From contig CAZMQG010000003.1 in the NCBI GenBank assembly GCA_964568625.1, positions 44,166 through 108,165 of the forward strand: a DNA stretch of 64,000 bases, given 5' to 3'. Shown in pieces: positions 23,396 to 34,589 of this stretch (positions within the stretch are counted from its first letter, which is position 1; the number at the start of each line of letters is the position of its first letter). The notes beneath the pieces were generated by a model that saw nothing but the letters and a program-made list of their open reading frames with translations, was not told the origin of the DNA and did no database searches. Source of the DNA: an uncultured Pseudomonadota bacterium. Lineage in GTDB: Bacteria; Babelota; Babeliae; Babelales; RVW-14. The translations under genes were made by a program, and so were the position numbers.

Positions 23396-24136
23396 CTACT
23401 CTTTCTGTAATTTTTCCAGTTCCACTCTGAACCAACCCTGAACATGCTTGATAAATTCATCACGTGTTGCAAACGATGAACGCATGATTGGTTTGCCTAT
23501 ACTAATTTTAGCGACTCCAAAATCATAATCAAGGCAGATACTATTTTTAGGAAAAATTTTATGGAATCCATAAATTGCAATTGGTACAACGGGACGATTT
23601 AATTTTTCTGCAAAAATCGTAAAACCAGGGAAAAAATCGTGAATTTGTCCATCATCATAACGCCTCCCTTCAGGGAAAAGTACCAAGTGCCTTTTTTTAT
23701 CCTGAGTCAATGCAACCGCATCAGAGATAACCCTTTTTAGCATTATTGAGCTTTCTCGATTAGCAATTACATGCATCCTTCTTAATATAAATCCAAAAAA
23801 TGGAATTTTTGTATAAGAAATCTTGCTAATCCAAATTTTAGGTTGATCTTTTAAAATCACTTCAACAATTGGAATATCCAAACTTGATGTATGATTCATA
23901 ACATAAATTGCCGGGTCATGTGAAAAATAAAGTAAGTTTTCTTTGCCTCGTATCTCGTATTTTACCGAGCCGAAAAAGAAAAGTAATCTGGAACACGTAC
24001 TTATTAACTTATGGAAAAGTCTACTATCATAACGATATGACTTTGGTAACATCGCAATGGGAAAACAAAATATAGTTGTTACGGTAATAGTTATTGTGCC
24101 AAAAACATAAGCAATAACCGATCTAATCAATTTCAT
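23396..24136 (-). CDS. plsC: 1-acyl-sn-glycerol-3-phosphate acyltransferase
   Basis: Acyltransferase motifs NHTSSLDIP (HX4D) and LFPEGRR. The start at the ATG at 24136 (MKLIRSVIAYVFG) gives a 14-nt overlap with the upstream gene. Its stop lies 3 nt before the batA start. Confidence 0.85.
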   Translation of the reverse strand: MKLIRSVIAYVFGTITITVTTIFCFPIAMLPKSYRYDSRLFHKLISTCSRLLFFFGSVKYEIRGKENLLYFSHDPAIYVMNHTSSLDIPIVEVILKDQPKIWISKISYTKIPFFGFILRRMHVIANRESSIMLKRVISDAVALTQDKKRHLVLFPEGRRYDDGQIHDFFPGFTIFAEKLNRPVVPIAIYGFHKIFPKNSICLDYDFGVAKISIGKPIMRSSFATRDEFIKHVQGWFRVELEKLQKE

Positions 24137-24962
24137 TTTCTTCGTGCTCAAAAATACTCTTGCTATAAAATATGTTTCTATTTTTATCATAAAACAAAAA
24201 TAAAATGCATAACCAGAAAATTTCACCTAGCGTTTTTACATATTTTACAAAAATTAGTCGAAACTCCGGAAATCGTGAATTGATTGGCTGGAATAACTGA
24301 GATGAATCGCTATCTAAAAGTAAAAAGTCATAAATTCCATATCCCGAAAATTTCATTAAATAGCCAAGACCAACTAACAATCCAAAAAATATTAAAAATA
24401 CAGGCATATTGTAAAAAATAAGATTTGCAACTTTTTCGATACAAGCAATAAAATCTGTAAATTTGCCGGGTGAATCAAACCAATAAAAAATCATAAGCAT
24501 TTCAAATATTTGGAATATGATTTTAAAAACCCAGTGCACTGTCGGGAATTGAGTTATGCCCAAAATTATCAACAATGCAAAAAAGATCAGTTGTAATATC
24601 ATAAAAATAAATAACCCGTTTATATATTTAAAAAACATGTTTTTTAAATATGTTTTTGCATCCAACTGATCTTCACGGCTACAAATTAAAATTATGATAG
24701 CACTATAAATTATAAACCAATTAAAATTCGTAATTTCAACTAAAAATGTAAGGCCTATCCCTGTGTTTATTTTTTTTGCCATTGCCTCTGCCAAAATTGC
24801 TGTTAAAAACAGATCTGCAACAAAAAACCAACGCATGGCAAAAACTGCGTTTTTTACGACACTTATATAATTTTTTACTACATCAATTAATCCAGATTTA
24901 ATTCTGTTGGGCAAAAAAGTCGCCAAGGATTTTTTCCATGCCTGCAAAACTTGTTGTATCAT
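24123..24962 (-). CDS. Hypothetical multi-pass membrane protein (paralog 2)
   Basis: About 6 TM segments. The N-terminus MIQQVLQAWKKSLATFLP matches the neighbour's LLKYWKESLGIFAW. I recognise no family. Confidence 0.7.
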   Translation of the reverse strand: MIQQVLQAWKKSLATFLPNRIKSGLIDVVKNYISVVKNAVFAMRWFFVADLFLTAILAEAMAKKINTGIGLTFLVEITNFNWFIIYSAIIILICSREDQLDAKTYLKNMFFKYINGLFIFMILQLIFFALLIILGITQFPTVHWVFKIIFQIFEMLMIFYWFDSPGKFTDFIACIEKVANLIFYNMPVFLIFFGLLVGLGYLMKFSGYGIYDFLLLDSDSSQLFQPINSRFPEFRLIFVKYVKTLGEIFWLCILFLFYDKNRNIFYSKSIFEHEENEID

Positions 24963-24965
24963 GAT

Positions 24966-25679
24966 TTATTTTGCTCCAAACAGATCTGGATATGCATGCT
25001 TAAATCTTAGGTATAATATTGATAAAAATGAAAGCTGCATAAAACGTAAAATTATTAAAATAAAATTTGATGAGCAAGTTAACACAATTTGCAATGCACT
25101 TACATGTCGGACTTCTACAGGCTCAAACAACATTCCGGAGCTGTGAAAAAAAATCACACAAACAATTCCCATTGACACTAGCCATAAGGTTAAATCTATT
25201 ATTAATGCCGTTGCTGGAAAATAGAAAAAAAATGAAAATCCATTTTTAATTGAATTTATTAATCCCATAAAATTAATACGCGAATCCATATAAAAAAATG
25301 TACTGATAATAAGAATTGTCCCGATGATAATAAAATCGTATGGAAGTAAGATTAACAATGCCCACGGAATAGCTCTGAAATACTGCCAAAAATAAAACAT
25401 ATCCTTACGCTCTGTTGATGCTCTACTGCAAAGTATGTAAGCAAAAAATACAACGCAGTGTGTTAACCGTATACGCAAAGAGCTGTAGGTATTCATCTGT
25501 ATATTTGAAATAAAAAGATTTGAAATCTCAACTAAACCTAACCACCAAAAATACTTTAGGAATAACTTCATTGAGCGAATAAAATTGTTTAGTGATGCAA
25601 GCACTATCAACTTAAACTGCCCCCAGGCAAAAATTCCAAGCGACTCTTTCCAATATTTTAAAAGTTTTTGGGAATCCAT
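24966..25679 (-). CDS. Hypothetical multi-pass membrane protein (paralog 1)
   Basis: About 6 TM segments, with the same WK(K/E)SL N-terminal motif. It lies 3 nt upstream of paralog 2. Confidence 0.7.
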   Translation of the reverse strand: MDSQKLLKYWKESLGIFAWGQFKLIVLASLNNFIRSMKLFLKYFWWLGLVEISNLFISNIQMNTYSSLRIRLTHCVVFFAYILCSRASTERKDMFYFWQYFRAIPWALLILLPYDFIIIGTILIISTFFYMDSRINFMGLINSIKNGFSFFFYFPATALIIDLTLWLVSMGIVCVIFFHSSGMLFEPVEVRHVSALQIVLTCSSNFILIILRFMQLSFLSILYLRFKHAYPDLFGAK

Positions 25680-25870
25680 AGCTCTCCAAGTTTAAAATTA
25701 TCCAGAATAATCAAATCTGACATACAGAATAGCTTAAAACAAATTGCAGAAATCTCAAACTTTGTTAATAAAAATCATAGGATTGTGCTATATATCGAAT
25801 AACTTGCAAATAAAACTTAAGGCCGTAAGTTTACGGCTATTCCACGGCATATTAAAAGCCACGAATTAAT

Positions 25871-27400
25871 TTAATTTTGCGCCCATGCTGAACATTTATT
25901 ATGCTGCGCAACACTGTCATCAACTATTTTGATAAAATTATCAGCTTGAGCCACGTTTTTGCCTGAACTTATAGTCGAAACCTTAAGCTCTGTAACCATT
26001 TTTTCAATATCTCGTCCGGAAAATCCGTCAATTTTTTGAGCTAATTTTTTATTCAACTCTTGGTTGATATCATCAGCCAAAGACATTGTTTGCTCTTTGG
26101 ATTTGCCATTTATATTGATTTTAAATGTCCCATTCTTAATATACTTATCAAGATAAAGCTTCAGCATTGCTTCGCGCTGCTCAAGTCCAGGTAGTGGAAT
26201 TTCTATTTTTTGATCAACTCGGCTCAAAACGGCAGGATCCAAATCTTCAGGATGGTTTGTAGCCAAGATTAACATATATTTTTCAGAGCTTGAATTTGTG
26301 CGAGAAAGAAATGCATCCACAAGCGCTATCCTAAATGTATCCAAGCCTTTTCTATTTCTCAAAAACGAATCCGCCTCATCAAAAAGAATAATCAAGCCTC
26401 GCTTACCATTTTCTGCCCAATCAAAAATCTCGTGCAACTTTTGAATCGCAAGTTGTTCAGAGTACTGCAATAACCCTGCGCCCTTTATAATTGCATAATT
26501 CATACCACTCTTACGTGCAATAATTCGCGCAATCATTGTTTTACCTGTACCGGGCTTTCCATATAAAATCATGTGTCTGTATGGAATACCCCATTCATGG
26601 GTTTTTTGAGTTTCATCAGCCAAACGTGTTATTTTTTGTTTTATATCAGGTGCTAAAATCACATCATCAAGTGTAAATTTATGTTCAGCAGGAAGTTTGG
26701 TTATTCCAAGCTTTAATTTTACCTGTTCATTTAGGCTTTTAATTGAAGTTTCTTGAACTAGAGATGGAATACTTACAAATGATTCCAAGTACTTAAAGCC
26801 AAACTCAAAGCCATAATAACTTGCAAATACTCCTGCCGAAACGGCGGTTAGCAAAACGCCATAACGAATCATAGCGTCTTTTTCAAGAGCCAAACGCATA
26901 CGTTCCAAAGCACCTTCATTTTTAACTGCTTGAGTTGCAACTGCCGTTGCAACCTGTGTTCTTCTGATAGCCTCTTCCTGTTGCTTGGCCAAAATCATCT
27001 GCCATCCACCTTTTAAAGCATCTTGAATATTGTTATTCCAAACTTCACCGGTTTTTTCAGCTTTTTCAATATCAGATTCAAGCTTTTTCATTCGCGCATC
27101 AACATTTTCTACTCGAACTTGAAACTCAAGATCTCCAATTGCGCCCTGCTCTTTTTTCTTTACAAGCATAATCTTTTCTTGCTCCAAGGCAGTACGTTTA
27201 CGATCAAAAGCCTCTCGTGTATCACGCGAAATTTCATCAAGAACTTTCGCCGTTTCTACCGCTACTTTTGCAGCATCATCAAGTTTTATATTAAAACCAC
27301 CAATATTAAAGGCTGCTACATCGGACGATTTTACTGCATAAACTTGTGTATTTAATAAAAATATATTTAATAAAAAAGAAAAGATTATAAACAAAAACAT
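25871..27400 (-). CDS. ATAD3-like membrane-anchored AAA+ ATPase (signal peptide, coiled coil, TM, AAA domain)
   Basis: Signal peptide MFLFIIFSFLLNIFLLNTQVYA, a ~150-aa coiled coil and a TM segment YGVLLTAVSAGVFASYYGF. Walker A ILYGKPGTGKT, Walker B LIILFDEADSFL and ILATNHPEDLDPAVLSRVD are present. Blocks such as IPSLVQETS, HEIFDWAENGKRGL, VDAFLSRTNSSSEKYMLILATN, LPGLEQREAMLKLYLDKYI and GFSGRDI run parallel to my recollection of human ATAD3A. Confidence 0.85.
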   Translation of the reverse strand: MFLFIIFSFLLNIFLLNTQVYAVKSSDVAAFNIGGFNIKLDDAAKVAVETAKVLDEISRDTREAFDRKRTALEQEKIMLVKKKEQGAIGDLEFQVRVENVDARMKKLESDIEKAEKTGEVWNNNIQDALKGGWQMILAKQQEEAIRRTQVATAVATQAVKNEGALERMRLALEKDAMIRYGVLLTAVSAGVFASYYGFEFGFKYLESFVSIPSLVQETSIKSLNEQVKLKLGITKLPAEHKFTLDDVILAPDIKQKITRLADETQKTHEWGIPYRHMILYGKPGTGKTMIARIIARKSGMNYAIIKGAGLLQYSEQLAIQKLHEIFDWAENGKRGLIILFDEADSFLRNRKGLDTFRIALVDAFLSRTNSSSEKYMLILATNHPEDLDPAVLSRVDQKIEIPLPGLEQREAMLKLYLDKYIKNGTFKININGKSKEQTMSLADDINQELNKKLAQKIDGFSGRDIEKMVTELKVSTISSGKNVAQADNFIKIVDDSVAQHNKCSAWAQN

Positions 27401-28659
27401 TAACTTACTTTCGTGCTAGCGTTATTACCCGTGTTTTGACTCATGTTATAAACCCACACACTAAGCTTAAAAATAGCTGGGGTTAACAGAGCCATATTTA
27501 ATAGAACCTGCCACTGCGCAAAATGTTTGCGTTTATTAGACTCCCAAAATGCAAATGAGCATTGTTGCATACTTTCCAAAATATGCTCAATCTCTTTTTC
27601 TGATACTTTTTGTTTTTCCAAATCGTTGCTGGATAATTTTTCTAAAACAGATATTAAGTTCTTTCTGTTTGAAACCAGATAACTAAAAAGTATTGGCTTA
27701 TAAATATTCTTGTTTGCCCACCAAACAAAGACACTTGCAAAGGCAATGCGCCGGGCCAAGTCAAATTTATTACCCATAACCCATCCAGGAATGATCTCGT
27801 ATTCACACAAAAATGATGTTGCAATATCCAGAACGGTAGTTTGAACTAAATCAAAATCAAGTCCAGCTAAAGATTTACCATTTAAAAATTCCGTCAATGA
27901 ATGATCAATTGGAGCCTTATTTTTATTGCAAAGAATATTAGCAAACGCAAAATCTACTAAATTCTGTTTAAACATAGAATTTAAGCAATAATAATTTTGT
28001 GCACGATAAATTACGTTTGTTGATGCGACAAATACTGCTATTGCTTGAAAATATTTAAGCCTACTGGTACGCACAACTTTACCAACAATATTTTCTATTT
28101 CTAGCGCATATTTCTCCGCTTCTTCGCCATTTTTTTGCGCAATTGATATATCAAAACTTTTAAGTATTTCCAAAAATTCTTTTGGCTCTTGCAAACAAAT
28201 GTCTCTTAATGAAGTTTGCATAGAGTTGCAAAGCATTTTAAAAAAAATAAAATCTACAATCCACTGACTTGAGACAGCAAGCAGCAACATCCAATCTCTA
28301 TTGCAAATGTTTATTTGAATTCCATTTTCATTAATTGGCAAATTTACGCCAACAAGAACCTTACGGTTAAACTGTTCTTGTTGTTCAATGCGATTTTTTT
28401 CTTTATTTAAAATTTTGTCTGTAAATTCGGATGCTGAGTATTTTTCACTGAGCTCATCACAACGCACCAAAAACTCTGGCTGAGTATATTTTTCGCAAAG
28501 CGTATCATAATATTCCAGCCTTGGAGCTAAATTTGCAGCAAATAGAAATATGGTTGATAAATTTACCCATAAAAAAACTGTCATCAACCAAAAAAAATAT
28601 AGTATTACTTTTTTATTCTTTAAAGCACACACAATAAATCCATCCCACCCAAAACTCAC
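27400..28659 (-). CDS. Hypothetical membrane protein translationally coupled to the ATAD3-like ATPase
   Basis: 419-aa ORF with an N-terminal TM segment (ILYFFWLMTVFLWVNLSTIFLF) and a C-terminal TM segment (VLLNMALLTPAIFKLSVWVY). Its TAA stop overlaps the downstream ATG (TAATG at 27398-27402). I recognise no domain. Confidence 0.7.
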   Translation of the reverse strand: MSFGWDGFIVCALKNKKVILYFFWLMTVFLWVNLSTIFLFAANLAPRLEYYDTLCEKYTQPEFLVRCDELSEKYSASEFTDKILNKEKNRIEQQEQFNRKVLVGVNLPINENGIQINICNRDWMLLLAVSSQWIVDFIFFKMLCNSMQTSLRDICLQEPKEFLEILKSFDISIAQKNGEEAEKYALEIENIVGKVVRTSRLKYFQAIAVFVASTNVIYRAQNYYCLNSMFKQNLVDFAFANILCNKNKAPIDHSLTEFLNGKSLAGLDFDLVQTTVLDIATSFLCEYEIIPGWVMGNKFDLARRIAFASVFVWWANKNIYKPILFSYLVSNRKNLISVLEKLSSNDLEKQKVSEKEIEHILESMQQCSFAFWESNKRKHFAQWQVLLNMALLTPAIFKLSVWVYNMSQNTGNNASTKVS

Positions 28660-28730
28660 TCAAAAAAACAGTGAAAGATTATGGTAGCATAGAATACCTT
28701 AAATTCAATGAATATCACTTAGAATTCAAC

Positions 28731-28765
28731 AAAAAAGGCCCTTGTAAAATTACAAAGGCCTTTTG
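28731..28765 (-). terminator. Rho-independent terminator after the 28959..29363 / 28800..28928 unit
   Basis: 13-bp stem with one mismatch: AAAGGCCCTTGTA (28734-28746) pairs with TACAAAGGCCTTT (28751-28763), with a 4-nt loop. The A6 run at 28731-28736 gives a U-tract on the minus-strand transcript. Confidence 0.6.
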
Positions 28766-28799: not shown

Positions 28800-28928
28800 T
28801 TATTCATTCATAAAGTACGCCGCATACGACTTTAGAAGTCCCTCTCTTCCCGTCCCAGTCTTTGCCAAAAATGCAAGAGAACTAAAGCAAAAGACAAGAA
28901 ACAACACGAAAAATAGAAATTTCTTCAT
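28800..28928 (-). CDS. Possible small secreted peptide (42 aa)
   Basis: It falls below the ORF-track size cutoff. My translation is MKKFLFFVLFLVFCFSSLAFLAKTGTGREGLLKSYAAYFMNE*. An AAGGGAG RBS lies 7 nt upstream of the ATG. It sits between the stop of 28959..29363 and the terminator. Confidence 0.35.
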   Translation of the reverse strand: MKKFLFFVLFLVFCFSSLAFLAKTGTGREGLLKSYAAYFMNE

Positions 28929-28958: not shown

Positions 28959-29363
28959 TTAGCTGCCCTTCTTCCTATGTATCATTGCCGCAATACCTAC
29001 TCCAAATAATGCAAGAAGTAACGCTGCTATAATTCCAAGAACAATAAATGTAAGCATACTTTTATACTCATTTTCACGTTGTTCAGACTTGATACGTTGT
29101 TCTTCTATTTTGCGCTCTAATTCTTTTTGTTCAAGCTTTCTTTCCAACTGGCTCACTTTTTCTTGATCACGTTCACGCTGCTCTTGCTCAAGTTTCTCTT
29201 CAACTCGATCACTTCTGTCCGATCTAGCGGATGCATGCCCAATCATCGTTCCTACAGCAAGCCCACCCAGAGCTCCCGCAACTGCAGCACCACCTTCATG
29301 CCCACATTTTACAGGTGAAACTAAAGCCAAAGCTGTAATTAATGCCAAAACTTTCTTTTCCAT
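28959..29363 (-). CDS. Glycine-zipper / coiled-coil protein with C-terminal TM anchor
   Basis: Leader MEKKVLALITALALVSPVKC. Gly zipper GGAAVAGALGGLAVGTMIG. An E/R/K/Q-rich helix (EEKLEQEQRERDQEKVSQLERKLEQKELERKIEEQRIK) follows, then a TM segment LTFIVLGIIAALLLALFGVGIAAMI. It resembles 16674..17222 in its first two modules. Confidence 0.7.
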   Translation of the reverse strand: MEKKVLALITALALVSPVKCGHEGGAAVAGALGGLAVGTMIGHASARSDRSDRVEEKLEQEQRERDQEKVSQLERKLEQKELERKIEEQRIKSEQRENEYKSMLTFIVLGIIAALLLALFGVGIAAMIHRKKGS

Positions 29364-33512: not shown

Positions 33513-34589
33513 TTAAAGTCCAAGAGACTTGCAATTTGGGCATATTAAACATGAACACTTACTAGCCCGATCTTTTTCAACAAGATCATCGCGTTCAACA
33601 CCACATTTGGAACACTTTGCAATTCCCAAAATCTCACAGATATGTCTATTAGATAGAACTCTGCCAAAATTCATAATTAAATTATTCCCATCCGTACTAA
33701 ACGCAGCAGCATTTGTAGAATAAAAACCACCAGTTAAATTTCTAAGACATTCACAATTTTTTGCATTCCACAATCTCGCAACTCCGTCTGCAACAGTTAC
33801 AAGTAAATTACCACTTGGATGCCAGGATATAGCACTAATTTCTTTTACATTTTCCTGCAAAGTCACAAAACGTTCAAACCTACAATCCTCACCTTTCTCG
33901 TATATCACAATTTTATTATTTGCCCCAATAGCAAGATATTTAGAATCAGAACTCCATGAAATACACGCAGAGCATTGTCCATTCCCATTAAATTTACAAA
34001 TCATCTGAACATTTTTTATTATTACATCTCCATTTTTAGTGCCATATGCAATATAGTTTCCACAGGGGCTCCACTGCAAAGATGTTATAGGAAACTGAGA
34101 AAAAGGAAGAATCTCCTGCTGAACCTCCACACTATTTAGACCCGCAATGCATACTCTATTTGACGCTGCAACAGCAATTCGGTCACCGGAACAATCAAAT
34201 GTTACCATTTCAATCGGACAATCAAATATCTTCAAAGTACGAATTTTCTCTTTATTTTCCACTTTGATTATTTCCACAGAGCCATCTTGCATACCATATG
34301 CAAGATGCGTTCCTGTTGATGCATCCGGACTAAACGCTACTACACCACTTGTATTTTTAAGCTGCAAAATAGGTCCATCAATCTTCTTTGAATGAAGCTT
34401 AAATACCTGCAAATTTCCATTATTAAAAGTTAAAGCATAGTATGTACTGTTCGGACCGATTGAAATTGAAGAAATAAGCCCAATATTTCTCCTCGGACTT
34501 GTGACCTCTTCTACAGCCATGCCAACCAAAAACGAATTTTGTATAAAAACACAAAAAAATAACATTGTTATTTTCTTCAAATTAACCAT
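33513..34589 (-). CDS. WD40-repeat protein with signal peptide and C-terminal Cys-rich zinc-finger-like tail
   Basis: Leader MLFFCVFIQNSFLVGMA. WD-like blades: VVAFSPDASTGTHLAYGMQDGSVEII, ITSLQWSPCGNYIAYGTKNGDVII, ISWSSDSKYLAIGANNKIVIY, ISAISWHPSGNLLVTVADGVARLWN. The tail is KCSKCG...KCSCLICPNCK. Confidence 0.8.
   Translation of the reverse strand: MVNLKKITMLFFCVFIQNSFLVGMAVEEVTSPRRNIGLISSISIGPNSTYYALTFNNGNLQVFKLHSKKIDGPILQLKNTSGVVAFSPDASTGTHLAYGMQDGSVEIIKVENKEKIRTLKIFDCPIEMVTFDCSGDRIAVAASNRVCIAGLNSVEVQQEILPFSQFPITSLQWSPCGNYIAYGTKNGDVIIKNVQMICKFNGNGQCSACISWSSDSKYLAIGANNKIVIYEKGEDCRFERFVTLQENVKEISAISWHPSGNLLVTVADGVARLWNAKNCECLRNLTGGFYSTNAAAFSTDGNNLIMNFGRVLSNRHICEILGIAKCSKCGVERDDLVEKDRASKCSCLICPNCKSLGL

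Follow-up and report, generated by a model that had tools for sequence, protein, structure and literature searches.

Does ATAD3, an AAA ATPase of the mitochondrial inner membrane, have relatives among bacteria? The question is raised by a gene for a 509-residue protein within the 64,000-nucleotide stretch of DNA analysed here (the window), which an initial annotation had described as a full-length ATAD3-like ATPase. Eukaryotic ATAD3 (ATAD3A/B) combines the Pfam domains ATAD3_N (PF12037) and AAA (PF00004); animals and Plasmodium alike depend on it for survival, and mutations in its gene occur in human neurological disease. To our knowledge, it is widespread among eukaryotes but lacking in fungi, and it is treated in the literature as exclusively eukaryotic; no mention of bacterial relatives was found in the literature on ATAD3. 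According to PMC13249166, ATAD3 was initially believed to exist only in multicellular eukaryotes, and the first study of it in a unicellular one dates from 2026. A bacterial sister or parent family would provide a comparative handle on ancestral features, such as the architecture of transmembrane (TM) helix, linker and AAA module and the aromatic residue of the pore loop, and would inform the origin of ATAD3 and the exchange of genes between intracellular parasites and their early eukaryotic hosts.

Architecture of the ATPase and its kinship with ATAD3

The ATPase gene (25871..27400, minus strand, as are all features below) is assigned to the bacterial branch of the ATAD3-family AAA proteins by its reading frame, its Pfam AAA match, its matches to ATAD3 and its position in the tree. 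Both this frame and the 419-residue frame of its neighbor lie where the initial annotation had placed them, and the proposed layout of signal-like N-terminus, helical ectodomain, one TM segment and one AAA domain was recovered, the coiled coil appearing as a helical hairpin in the structural model. Specifically, residues 1-22 (27335..27400) form a Sec-type signal-peptide-like segment, MFLFIIFSFLLNIFLLNTQVYA-V, recognized by hydropathy and family comparison; hydrophobic residues 2-20 are followed by VYA-V (Kyte-Doolittle 2.04), and we infer that the segment is cleaved. Such a segment is found in 100 of 111 N-complete members of the bacterial family, versus 11 of 28 eukaryotic ATAD3 proteins. 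Residues 23-173 (26882..27334) comprise a helical, coiled-coil-like ectodomain, presumably periplasmic, which AlphaFold models with moderate confidence as a long hairpin over residues 41-154 (helices at 41-84 and 90-154; core pLDDT 60-85). A single Gly/Ala-rich, ATAD3-like TM helix follows at about residues 176-203 (26792..26875), as indicated by hydropathy, model and hhalign; it is moderately hydrophobic (Kyte-Doolittle 1.46), is modelled as a helix from 174 to 209, and is flanked by residues that do not clearly satisfy the positive-inside rule. Next come the ATAD3-specific juxtamembrane motif SFVSIPSLVQETS, conserved across the family (residues 207-219; 26744..26782), and a predicted cytoplasmic AAA module with lid and C-terminal helix, delimited by motifs, model and PDB folds (residues 243-509; 25874..26674).

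The AAA module, modelled at pLDDT above 90, holds a single AAA domain (PF00004, residues 277-403, E=1.3e-26) and displays the hallmarks of the classic AAA clade, namely Walker A (GKPGTGKT, 281), Walker B (IILFDE, 337), sensor 1 (N382), an arginine finger (R394) in the second region of homology (SRH) and an alpha-helical lid carrying GFSGR (R463). The Walker motifs, the arginine finger and the arginine of GFSGR do not vary in any of the 148 family sequences (115 bacterial and 33 eukaryotic), while the sensor-1 column is N in 147/148 and A in one bacterial sequence; the catalytic residues of the window protein are all intact. Searches of the PDB by sequence and by fold, in a set devoid of any ATAD3 structure, returned FtsH, p97 and Rpt only, with fold matches to the AAA module at E~1e-16.

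On the evidence of its sequence, the 509-residue protein is a genuine relative of ATAD3, and the relationship extends beyond the generic AAA core as the initial annotation had claimed. Among 1.84 billion proteins searched, the best matches outside its own family are eukaryotic ATAD3 proteins, which are 34-35% identical to it across roughly 330 residues, beginning at the TM helix and ending at the C-terminus (BLASTP against Solanum ATAD3: 35%, 337 aa, E=9e-60; against fish ATAD3: 34%, 328 aa, E=5e-54). An exhaustive HMMER search yielded 569 representatives at E<=1e-30, the top single-domain matches being signal-peptide proteins of ~500 residues and eukaryotic ATAD3; Solanum ATAD3 scored 203 bits over query residues 174-502. 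By comparison, the best single p97 domain scores about 65 bits. Consistent with these searches, hhalign aligned the TM/junction segment of the window protein's close family to eukaryotic ATAD3 over 58 columns (probability 97%, E=1.1e-10), and likewise the C-terminal lid (98.5%, E=2e-15). The juxtamembrane motif, IPSLVQETS in the window protein and G.P.LVRE(S/T)S in the family consensus, has an invariant P212 and at least 90% conservation of L214, E217 and S219 among 32 family members; it is present in eukaryotic ATAD3 but absent from FtsH, p97, ATAD1, katanin and Vps4-type sequences.

Further motifs reinforce the assignment. The window protein carries the ATAD3-specific motifs LH..FDWA, NAFL.RTG..S, LPG..ER...LY.DKY and GFSGR, together with the single-Arg SRH D.A...R(I/V)D, and the human ATAD3A motif pairs quoted in the annotation were compared with a fish ATAD3 (P0245), whose counterparts, LPGQEERERLVRLYFDKF among them, each align with the quoted motifs of the window protein. 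These derived motifs, DYA..(S/T)G.D among them, are common to the bacterial family and ATAD3, while other AAA clades lack them. In a neighbor-joining tree (287 columns, 148 family sequences, 17 outgroup domains), a distance method with few outgroups, the bacterial family groups with ATAD3 on a long branch (0.42) in 88% of 200 bootstraps, and distances from the window AAA sequence are 1.16-1.4 to ATAD3 versus 1.8-2.3 to other clades.

The likeness to ATAD3 encompasses the order of parts (helical N-domain, Gly/Ala-rich TM, G.P.LVRETS linker, single AAA domain, LY.DKY/GFSGR lid), yet the "full-length" resemblance stands only from the TM helix, where the region in common begins, to the C-terminus. 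For the ectodomain, Pfam ATAD3_N (PF12037/DUF3523) gave no match to the window ATPase at E<=0.1, and a pre-TM ectodomain profile showed no significant similarity to eukaryotic ATAD3 N-regions (hhalign E=0.31). An ad hoc HMM of the eukaryotic N-domain did match residues 42-224 at 22 bits; this match was not accepted as a sign that the ectodomains are homologous, since hhalign gives a null result when the pre-TM part is taken by itself. Seven full-length bacterial relatives do pass the 25-bit gathering score of ATAD3_N (P0017, 26.1; P0036, 42.9; P0040, 44.2; P0259, 44.3; P0253, 40.4; P0201, 35.7; P0252, 28.7), one bacterial relative matching over profile positions 40-264, and these were counted toward homology with ATAD3; the juxtamembrane linker itself corresponds to the C-terminal end of that profile, positions ~190-265. 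The window protein also differs from ATAD3 in its cleavable-type signal peptide, the N-terminus of ATAD3 being uncleaved, and in an N-domain that is about 80 residues shorter, not detectably similar and devoid of the proline-rich motif.

The bacterial family comprises over 100 clusters at 50% identity and, in contrast to ATAD3, often has several paralogues per genome. Where a source is named, it belongs to Babeliales/Dependentiae (TM6), a group of diderm bacteria that live as obligate parasites within protist cells, except for two metagenome-assembled genomes labelled Pseudomonadota (L004) and Epsilonproteobacteria (P0030); the closest homologues of the window ATPase carry the name Candidatus Babeliales. 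A scan of GTDB genomes found at least four full-length loci, of which, among the matches listed, three are from Babeliales/TM6 and one is labelled Pseudomonadota, figures that set a lower bound on taxonomic spread since generic AAA patterns dominate those matches. Automatic annotation at JGI already names some proteins of this family "ATAD3A/B".

A recurrent two-gene module

Immediately upstream of the ATPase gene lies a gene encoding a helical membrane protein (27400..28659), 419 residues as called and delineated by its reading frame and its upstream homologues. Translation probably begins at the GTG codon at 28632, giving 410 residues, because homologues begin at the equivalent of residue 10. 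The hydrophobic segments described at both ends were seen (residues 22-40 and 385-403), while "bitopic" may undercount the TM segments, as a third hydrophobic stretch occupies residues 125-143 (Kyte-Doolittle 1.65). Searches of Pfam, NCBIfam, PADLOC and PHROG assigned this partner to none of their families; its model is all-helical and of low confidence (pLDDT 52.6), and a fold search with that model returned nothing below E=0.4. Word-indexed protein searches, started from the partner sequence by itself and from its profile, retrieved 10-11 close clusters and no eukaryote, and a metagenome scan starting from it found 3 close loci.

The annotated TAATG overlap of the two genes is present in the sequence (27398..27402): in the junction ...AGT TAA TG TTT..., the partner's stop codon (TAA, 27402-27400) and the ATPase start codon (ATG, 27400-27398) share one base. 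In 7 of the 11 genes first checked, the ATPase start codon overlaps the reading frame upstream of it by 1 or 4 nt. The partner is the overlapping frame, by 1 or 4 nt, in L003, L001, L004, L002 and L006, and by 11 nt in L089, while in L005 a 132-aa frame located after the partner overlaps the ATPase start. A partner gene lies upstream in 13/18 family genes examined; the remaining five (L091, L083, the middle L002 paralogue and both L084 genes) have no recognizable partner. When a partner-family profile was run against 402 reading frames, it matched only those adjoining, and upstream of, ATAD3-like genes. The two-gene module recurs across the bacterial family, and since the partner family precedes even divergent ATAD3-like genes, the coupling is stronger than the initial annotation had claimed. 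Sequence comparison reveals within the ATAD3 family an extensive bacterial branch, whose genes are nearly always situated directly behind a conserved membrane-protein gene; this genetic partner may offer a clue to the ancestral substrate or co-factor.

Terminator-like hairpins occur on both sides of the pair. One (25822..25837), found by consensus scan only, lies 34 nt past the ATPase stop codon; the other, a hairpin with a T-run upstream of the partner (aaaggcctttgta-attt-tacaagggccttttttgtt, 28729..28764), was seen in the sequence, was missed by that scan, and likely ends the preceding transcription unit. The inference of an envelope or lipid-organization role from the nearby plsC and bat genes was rejected because synteny breaks directly downstream of the ATPase in relatives with 85-93% ATPase identity, and the plsC/bat surroundings are not conserved among relatives. 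The two membrane proteins called paralogs in the initial annotation share only an 11/35-residue N-terminal motif. The flanks of the pair contain housekeeping genes (glyA, kdsA-like, nusB-sized and efp-sized reading frames); a WD40 protein is encoded in the window, and ankyrin arrays adjoin one family member.

A proposed envelope machine

Taken together, these data make it probable, in our judgment, that the window protein is an inner-membrane ATPase of the bacterial branch of ATAD3, with a periplasmic ectodomain, that works as a complex with its co-translated partner. The N-terminal signal peptide would direct export of the helical ectodomain to the periplasm and the single TM helix would anchor the protein in the inner membrane, leaving the AAA module on the cytoplasmic side. 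This topology, which the initial annotation had argued and which follows from the sequence features above, would be equivalent to that of mitochondrial ATAD3, whose N-domain is placed in the intermembrane compartment and whose AAA domain faces the matrix. The Dependentiae possess both inner and outer membranes (PMC6561590), and a KdsA-type gene lies within the window. As in other classic AAA proteins, the ATPase may assemble into a ring, its ectodomain helices forming a periplasmic stalk, and together with the partner it may constitute a stoichiometric complex in which ATP hydrolysis drives remodelling, insertion or extraction of the partner or of partner-bound envelope components. Threading of a substrate appears more plausible for the bacterial proteins than for ATAD3 because the former keep the pore-loop-1 aromatic residue (Q-F/Y; aromatic in 103/115 bacterial sequences), replaced by P-L/M-G in ATAD3.

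An unlikely variant accepts the same homology but makes the ATPase a non-threading scaffold or organizer of the inner membrane, the adjacent gene being merely co-regulated and its product neither physical partner nor substrate. The functions proposed for ATAD3 are indeed of a scaffolding type, involving the nucleoid, cristae and lipid organization (PMC13249166; PMC7663417), and neither branch has the canonical aromatic-hydrophobic-Gly motif in pore loop 1. Against this, the start/stop overlap and the co-divergence of partner and ATPase across the family suggest stoichiometric co-assembly, the near-invariance of the catalytic residues implies that ATP turnover matters, and the bacterial branch retains its pore-loop aromatic.

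Origin of the bacterial family

The initial annotation had offered two origins, a eukaryote-to-bacterium transfer or a bacterial relative of the ATAD3 lineage. In the neighbor-joining tree, eukaryotic ATAD3 is monophyletic in 94% of bootstraps and bacterial sequences are never nested inside it; bacterial monophyly was recovered in 0/200 replicates, and none placed a bacterial clade as sister to the eukaryotes. Nor do we claim that eukaryotes nest within the bacteria: lineages with a Pfam-detectable ATAD3_N are not consistently nearest to eukaryotes in the AAA region. Pore loop 1 has 13 residues, with a one-residue deletion and P-L/M-G, in 33/33 eukaryotic ATAD3 proteins, as opposed to 14 residues in the window protein, 102/115 bacterial members and 17/17 outgroups. 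The window protein does not have the eukaryote-type loop and so falls outside the eukaryotic ATAD3 clade proper, and the loop length and aromatic residue of the bacterial family are, on this comparison, ancestral.

Non-nesting and the ancestral pore loop argue against a recent transfer from a host. The disfavored scenario, in which a protist ATAD3 was recently captured and now serves as an effector or mimic of eukaryotic type, its signal peptide perhaps allowing secretion so that it acts on host mitochondria, is in our estimation quite improbable, despite several points of appeal: Dependentiae live inside protists and hold many eukaryote-like genes, such as the ankyrin arrays and the WD40 gene noted above; in one Dependentiae isolate, which remodels the mitochondrion of its host, 44% of the proteins carry signal peptides (PMC6561590); and paralogue arrays with a fast-evolving partner are compatible with host-interaction genes. 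However, the mean distance within the bacterial family (1.31) is about as large as that between bacteria and eukaryotes (1.40), an ATPase requires ATP on its AAA side, and the operon partner, which has no counterpart in eukaryotic ATAD3 systems, is a bacterial-type membrane protein for which the partner protein search found no eukaryotic homologue.

A tentative alternative, which we regard as possible though doubtful, is that ATAD3 descends from a bacterial envelope module, made up of the partner and an inner-membrane AAA ATPase with a periplasmic stalk, that survives in Dependentiae. Stem eukaryotes would have acquired the ATPase from such a bacterium, or inherited it from a shared ancestor, and would afterwards have dispensed with the signal peptide, with the partner and with the aromatic residue of the pore loop. 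If so, the bacterial module would represent the ancestral, mechanistically simpler form of the mitochondrial protein.

Least credible, and very improbable, is the proposal that the protein is an ordinary classic-clade AAA ATPase (IetA-like anti-phage, FtsH-like or Msp1-like) that resembles ATAD3 through generic AAA similarity and convergence: Pfam reports PF00004 alone, the highest-scoring NCBIfam and PADLOC models, which match the AAA module only, are those of IteA/IetA anti-phage ATPases (78 and 91 bits), and cassettes that pair an ATPase gene with a membrane-protein gene are characteristic of defence islands, but the IteA score of 78.5 bits is far below the NCBIfam cutoff of 510, ATAD3 scores two to three times higher and reaches the TM/junction and lid, and the family-specific motifs are common to ATAD3 only. 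Defence-system and phage readings were rejected likewise, as the partner lacks a PADLOC or PHROG match and the housekeeping flanks contain no defence island. Compared with the Iet system, which has a similar two-gene arrangement, IetA lacks a signal peptide, TM helix and junction, and it is paired with a protease (IetS), not present here, rather than with a helical membrane protein. FtsH, which supplies the top PDB fold matches, shares with the window ATPase the classic AAA fold and, on the topology predicted here, anchoring in the inner membrane between a domain in the periplasm and an AAA ring in the cytoplasm; the window protein, however, has no M41 protease domain, one TM segment rather than two, neither the canonical aromatic-hydrophobic-Gly pore loop nor the two-arginine RPGR SRH, and a sequence distance to FtsH of about 1.9, against 1.2-1.4 to ATAD3.

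Relationship of the ATPase to eukaryotic ATAD3

The 509-aa ATPase (25871-27400, minus strand) combines a strongly hydrophobic N-terminus ending VYA|V (hydropathy), a long helical hairpin in the predicted structure (residues 41-154), an unbroken modelled helix at residues 174-209 that spans a moderately hydrophobic TM segment, and a single Pfam AAA domain (PF00004); catalytic residues are intact by alignment. The lid carries a beta-hairpin insertion in the AlphaFold model (FKININGKSKEQTM; residues 425-438, 26087-26128, minus strand), where the insertion in eukaryotic ATAD3 is longer and of low complexity. Curated libraries by themselves would say no to any ATAD3 likeness outside the AAA core: PF00004 is the only Pfam match, with ATAD3_N unmatched at E<=0.1; the top NCBIfam model, the anti-phage ATPase IteA, scores far under its cutoff; and the PDB, which holds no ATAD3 entry, returns p97 and FtsH.

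Searched exhaustively with HMMER against 1.84 billion representatives, the ATPase matched 569 proteins at E<=1e-30. The top single-domain matches are ~500-aa proteins with bacterial signal peptides and proteins of 560-640 aa whose alignments run from query residue ~175 through to the C-terminus, several of the latter being named Solanum, Macleaya, Reticulomyxa or fish proteins, or bearing the JGI label 'ATAD3A/B'; one retrieved protein, P0035, reaches 229 bits against Pfam ATAD3_N. BLASTP alignments with the Solanum protein (35% identity over 337 aa, E=9e-60) and the fish protein (34% over 328 aa, E=5e-54) both begin within the TM helix. Profile-profile comparisons with eukaryotic ATAD3, in which the query side was built solely from the close family of the window ATPase, matched the TM and junction (97%, E=1e-10) and the lid and C-terminus (98.5%, E=2e-15). 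Additionally, alignment blocks reveal four motifs common to the bacterial family and ATAD3 (G.P.LVRE(T/S)S, DYA..(S/T)G.D, LH..FDWA and NAFL.RTG..S) that are absent from FtsH, p97, ATAD1, katanin and Vps4-type proteins, and every motif pair that the initial annotation had set against human ATAD3A was found in the fish sequence. Taken together, HMMER, BLASTP, profile-profile and motif data bear out the proposed resemblance beyond the generic AAA core, and homology with ATAD3 is near-certain.

The description of the protein as a full-length ATAD3 is only partly right: the likeness runs from the TM segment to the C-terminus, and the pre-TM ectodomain (~23-176) has no ATAD3_N match and no significant similarity to the N-region of eukaryotic ATAD3 (hhalign E=0.31). 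A 22-bit match to an ad hoc N-domain HMM was rejected as ectodomain evidence, being explained by the TM/junction part. Since several other bacterial members reach the ATAD3_N gathering score (P0252, positions 40-264; P0201, positions 118-264), the N-domain is probably homologous family-wide and diverged past detection in the lineage of the window ATPase.

The bacterial family and its origin

Among 115 bacterial-type cluster representatives (median 510 aa, Walker A at about residue 280), a signal-like N-terminus is present in 100 of the 111 N-complete members and an internal TM-like segment in 93. Where a source is named, it is Candidatus Babeliales, Dependentiae or TM6, apart from two MAGs labelled otherwise (Pseudomonadota and Epsilonproteobacteria, labels as given). 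The members nearest to eukaryotes sit among ordinary bacterial genes, on contigs 0.4-1.3 Mb long. In a neighbour-joining (NJ) tree (287 columns, 200 bootstraps, 17 other AAA domains as outgroup), bacterial and eukaryotic ATAD3 proteins separate from the outgroup with 88% bootstrap; eukaryote monophyly receives 94% and bacterial monophyly 0%, a bacterial paraphyly that long-branch effects could produce in a distance tree. Bacterial sequences differ among themselves by a mean distance of 1.31 and eukaryotic ones by 0.91; the mean is 1.40 between the two groups and 2.17 from either of them to the outgroups. The G307-L322 interval spans 13 residues in all 33 eukaryotic sequences and 14 in all 17 outgroups and 102/115 bacterial sequences, the window ATPase included, the bacterial exceptions being scattered divergent sequences; as a rare change, this length difference provides support independent of the tree. 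The pore-loop position is F or Y in 103 of the 115 bacterial sequences, and L or M followed by G in eukaryotes. Together, tree, distances and pore-loop data argue against recent capture from a crown eukaryote and fit reciprocal sisterhood as well as a bacterial origin of ATAD3.

Several variants occur among the retrieved loci and proteins. Tandem ATAD3-like paralogues, three in L002 (6001-12262; 531, 487 and 485 aa) and two in L084 (7995-11211), suggest lineage-specific expansion. Six of the top HMMER matches (P0129, P0130, P0136, P0137, P0155 and P0162; summed scores 250-340 bits) span 1500-2300 aa and carry 4-6 AAA domains as well as TM segments at the N-terminus. In P0225, P0258 and P0261, an ATAD3-type module with a recognisable N-domain follows extensions of 800-1000 aa beginning with signal peptides; we know of no description of this fusion architecture for ATAD3.

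The partner gene

As initially annotated, the ATPase gene is preceded on the minus strand by a 419-aa ORF (27400-28659, starting at GTG 28659 as listed). The junction reads AGT TAA TG TTT, such that the partner's TAA (27402-27400) and the ATG of the ATPase (27400-27398) have one base in common. The terminator scan reports a terminator-like hairpin 3' of the ATPase stop, and a near-perfect hairpin with a T-run, read in the sequence and unreported by the scan, lies 5' of the partner (~28729-28764, minus strand); with hairpins on both sides, the pair looks like a two-gene operon. A short ORF of about 42 aa (~28800-28927, minus strand), beginning with the signal-peptide-like MKKFLFFVLFLVFCFSSLAFLA, is followed by this near-perfect hairpin and T-run.

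Every partner homologue starts at the position matching residue 10 of the listed ORF (M-C-A-L-K-N-K-K), which makes GTG 28632 the probable true start and the product 410 aa long. Hydropathy marks three hydrophobic segments in the partner, one at each end and one at residues 125-143. The partner matched no family in Pfam, NCBIfam, PADLOC or PHROG, its helical model is of low confidence, and a fold search returned no match. Word-indexed protein searches recovered only 10-11 close clusters and no eukaryotic homologue, yet genomic context reveals more relatives. Specifically, loci were retrieved by way of divergent ATPases, and in 7 of the first 11 genes checked there the ATPase start lies within an unannotated upstream ORF, the overlap being 1 or 4 nt; in L089 it is 11 nt. 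Six of the seven overlapping ORFs belong to the partner family; the exception, in L005, is a short ORF of 132 aa, itself overlapped by 8 nt by a partner-family ORF (L005 2495-3523). Over 356 aa, the window and L001 partners are 24% identical (E=7e-36), against 41% for the corresponding ATPases. When all 402 ORFs from 16 loci were searched with a profile built from the partner family of the window, every match lay immediately upstream of an ATAD3-like gene: L089 (2.5e-39), L005 (1.9e-10) and two L002 partners (4e-6 and 4e-5) in the first round, with upstream ORFs of L006, L092 and L090 added by one iteration and no further matches. Overall, 13 of 18 family genes in the examined loci have an upstream partner-family ORF; L091, L083, the middle L002 paralogue and both L084 genes do not.

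Published accounts describe ATAD3 as eukaryotic (PMC13249166, PMC7663417). A literature search found no paper joining ATAD3 with Dependentiae or describing bacterial relatives, and AAA ATPases go unmentioned in the Chromulinavorax genome paper. Some bacterial family proteins already bear the label 'ATAD3A/B' through automatic JGI annotation, so the similarity is visible in databases, yet it appears undescribed. The protein belongs to a bacterial ATAD3 branch distinguished by its signal peptide, its ancestral pore-loop features and its dedicated partner gene.

Proposed function and genomic surroundings

The cell is presumed diderm because Dependentiae possess two membranes (PMC6561590) and the window contains a KdsA-type gene. 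The helical ectodomain would be exported by Sec to the periplasm, with the AAA module on the cytoplasmic side; the ATPase would form a ring, like other classic AAA proteins, co-assemble with the partner, and use ATP to remodel the partner or envelope components. Homology and mechanism together make a fairly probable picture, the mechanistic part being much less certain than the homology. Because the pore-loop aromatic is kept in the bacterial branch, threading is more plausible here than for eukaryotic ATAD3; a scaffold that does not thread, and whose neighbour is only co-regulated with it, would share the same homology and is considered unlikely. Somewhat less likely still is a recently acquired host-derived effector, which eukaryote monophyly, the distances, and the pore-loop length and residue disfavour. 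A generic or defence AAA protein is highly improbable given the sub-cutoff IteA score, the ATAD3 matches in HMMER, the profile-profile results and the lack of a PADLOC family for the partner.

The initial annotation correctly identified a PlsC-type acyltransferase, two VWA BatA/B-like proteins, BatD and TPR proteins among the neighbours. Its two membrane 'paralogs' (237 and 279 aa; 24123-25679, minus strand) have in common just an 11/35-residue N-terminal motif, match no Pfam or NCBIfam family, and do not occur at the equivalent position in close relatives. Among relatives whose ATPase is 85-93% identical, none of the ORFs that follow the ATPase gene has a homologue anywhere in the 64-kb window. 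Given this unconserved association and the barely alike membrane pair, the lipid role proposed from context is accorded no weight. Upstream, glyA and a 134-aa coiled-coil membrane protein are syntenic in these relatives. The latter (28959-29363, minus strand) opens with a signal peptide and closes with a C-terminal TM, the helical middle between them being E/R/K-rich and highly charged; its gene accompanies the module in close relatives L003 and L086-L088 and was not seen in distant loci.

Elsewhere, three loci have a Pyr_redox_2 thioredoxin-reductase/thioredoxin fusion gene one or two genes upstream of the module (L002 1862-3361, L091 3427-4881, L092 1509-2948), and in L001 a thioredoxin gene lies just downstream, which may reflect a redox link or one orthologous neighbourhood. 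Eukaryote-like repeat proteins are represented in the window by a WD40 beta-propeller (33513-34589, minus strand), and seven ankyrin-like genes form an array directly downstream of the gene for P0252 (L083 9710-17015).
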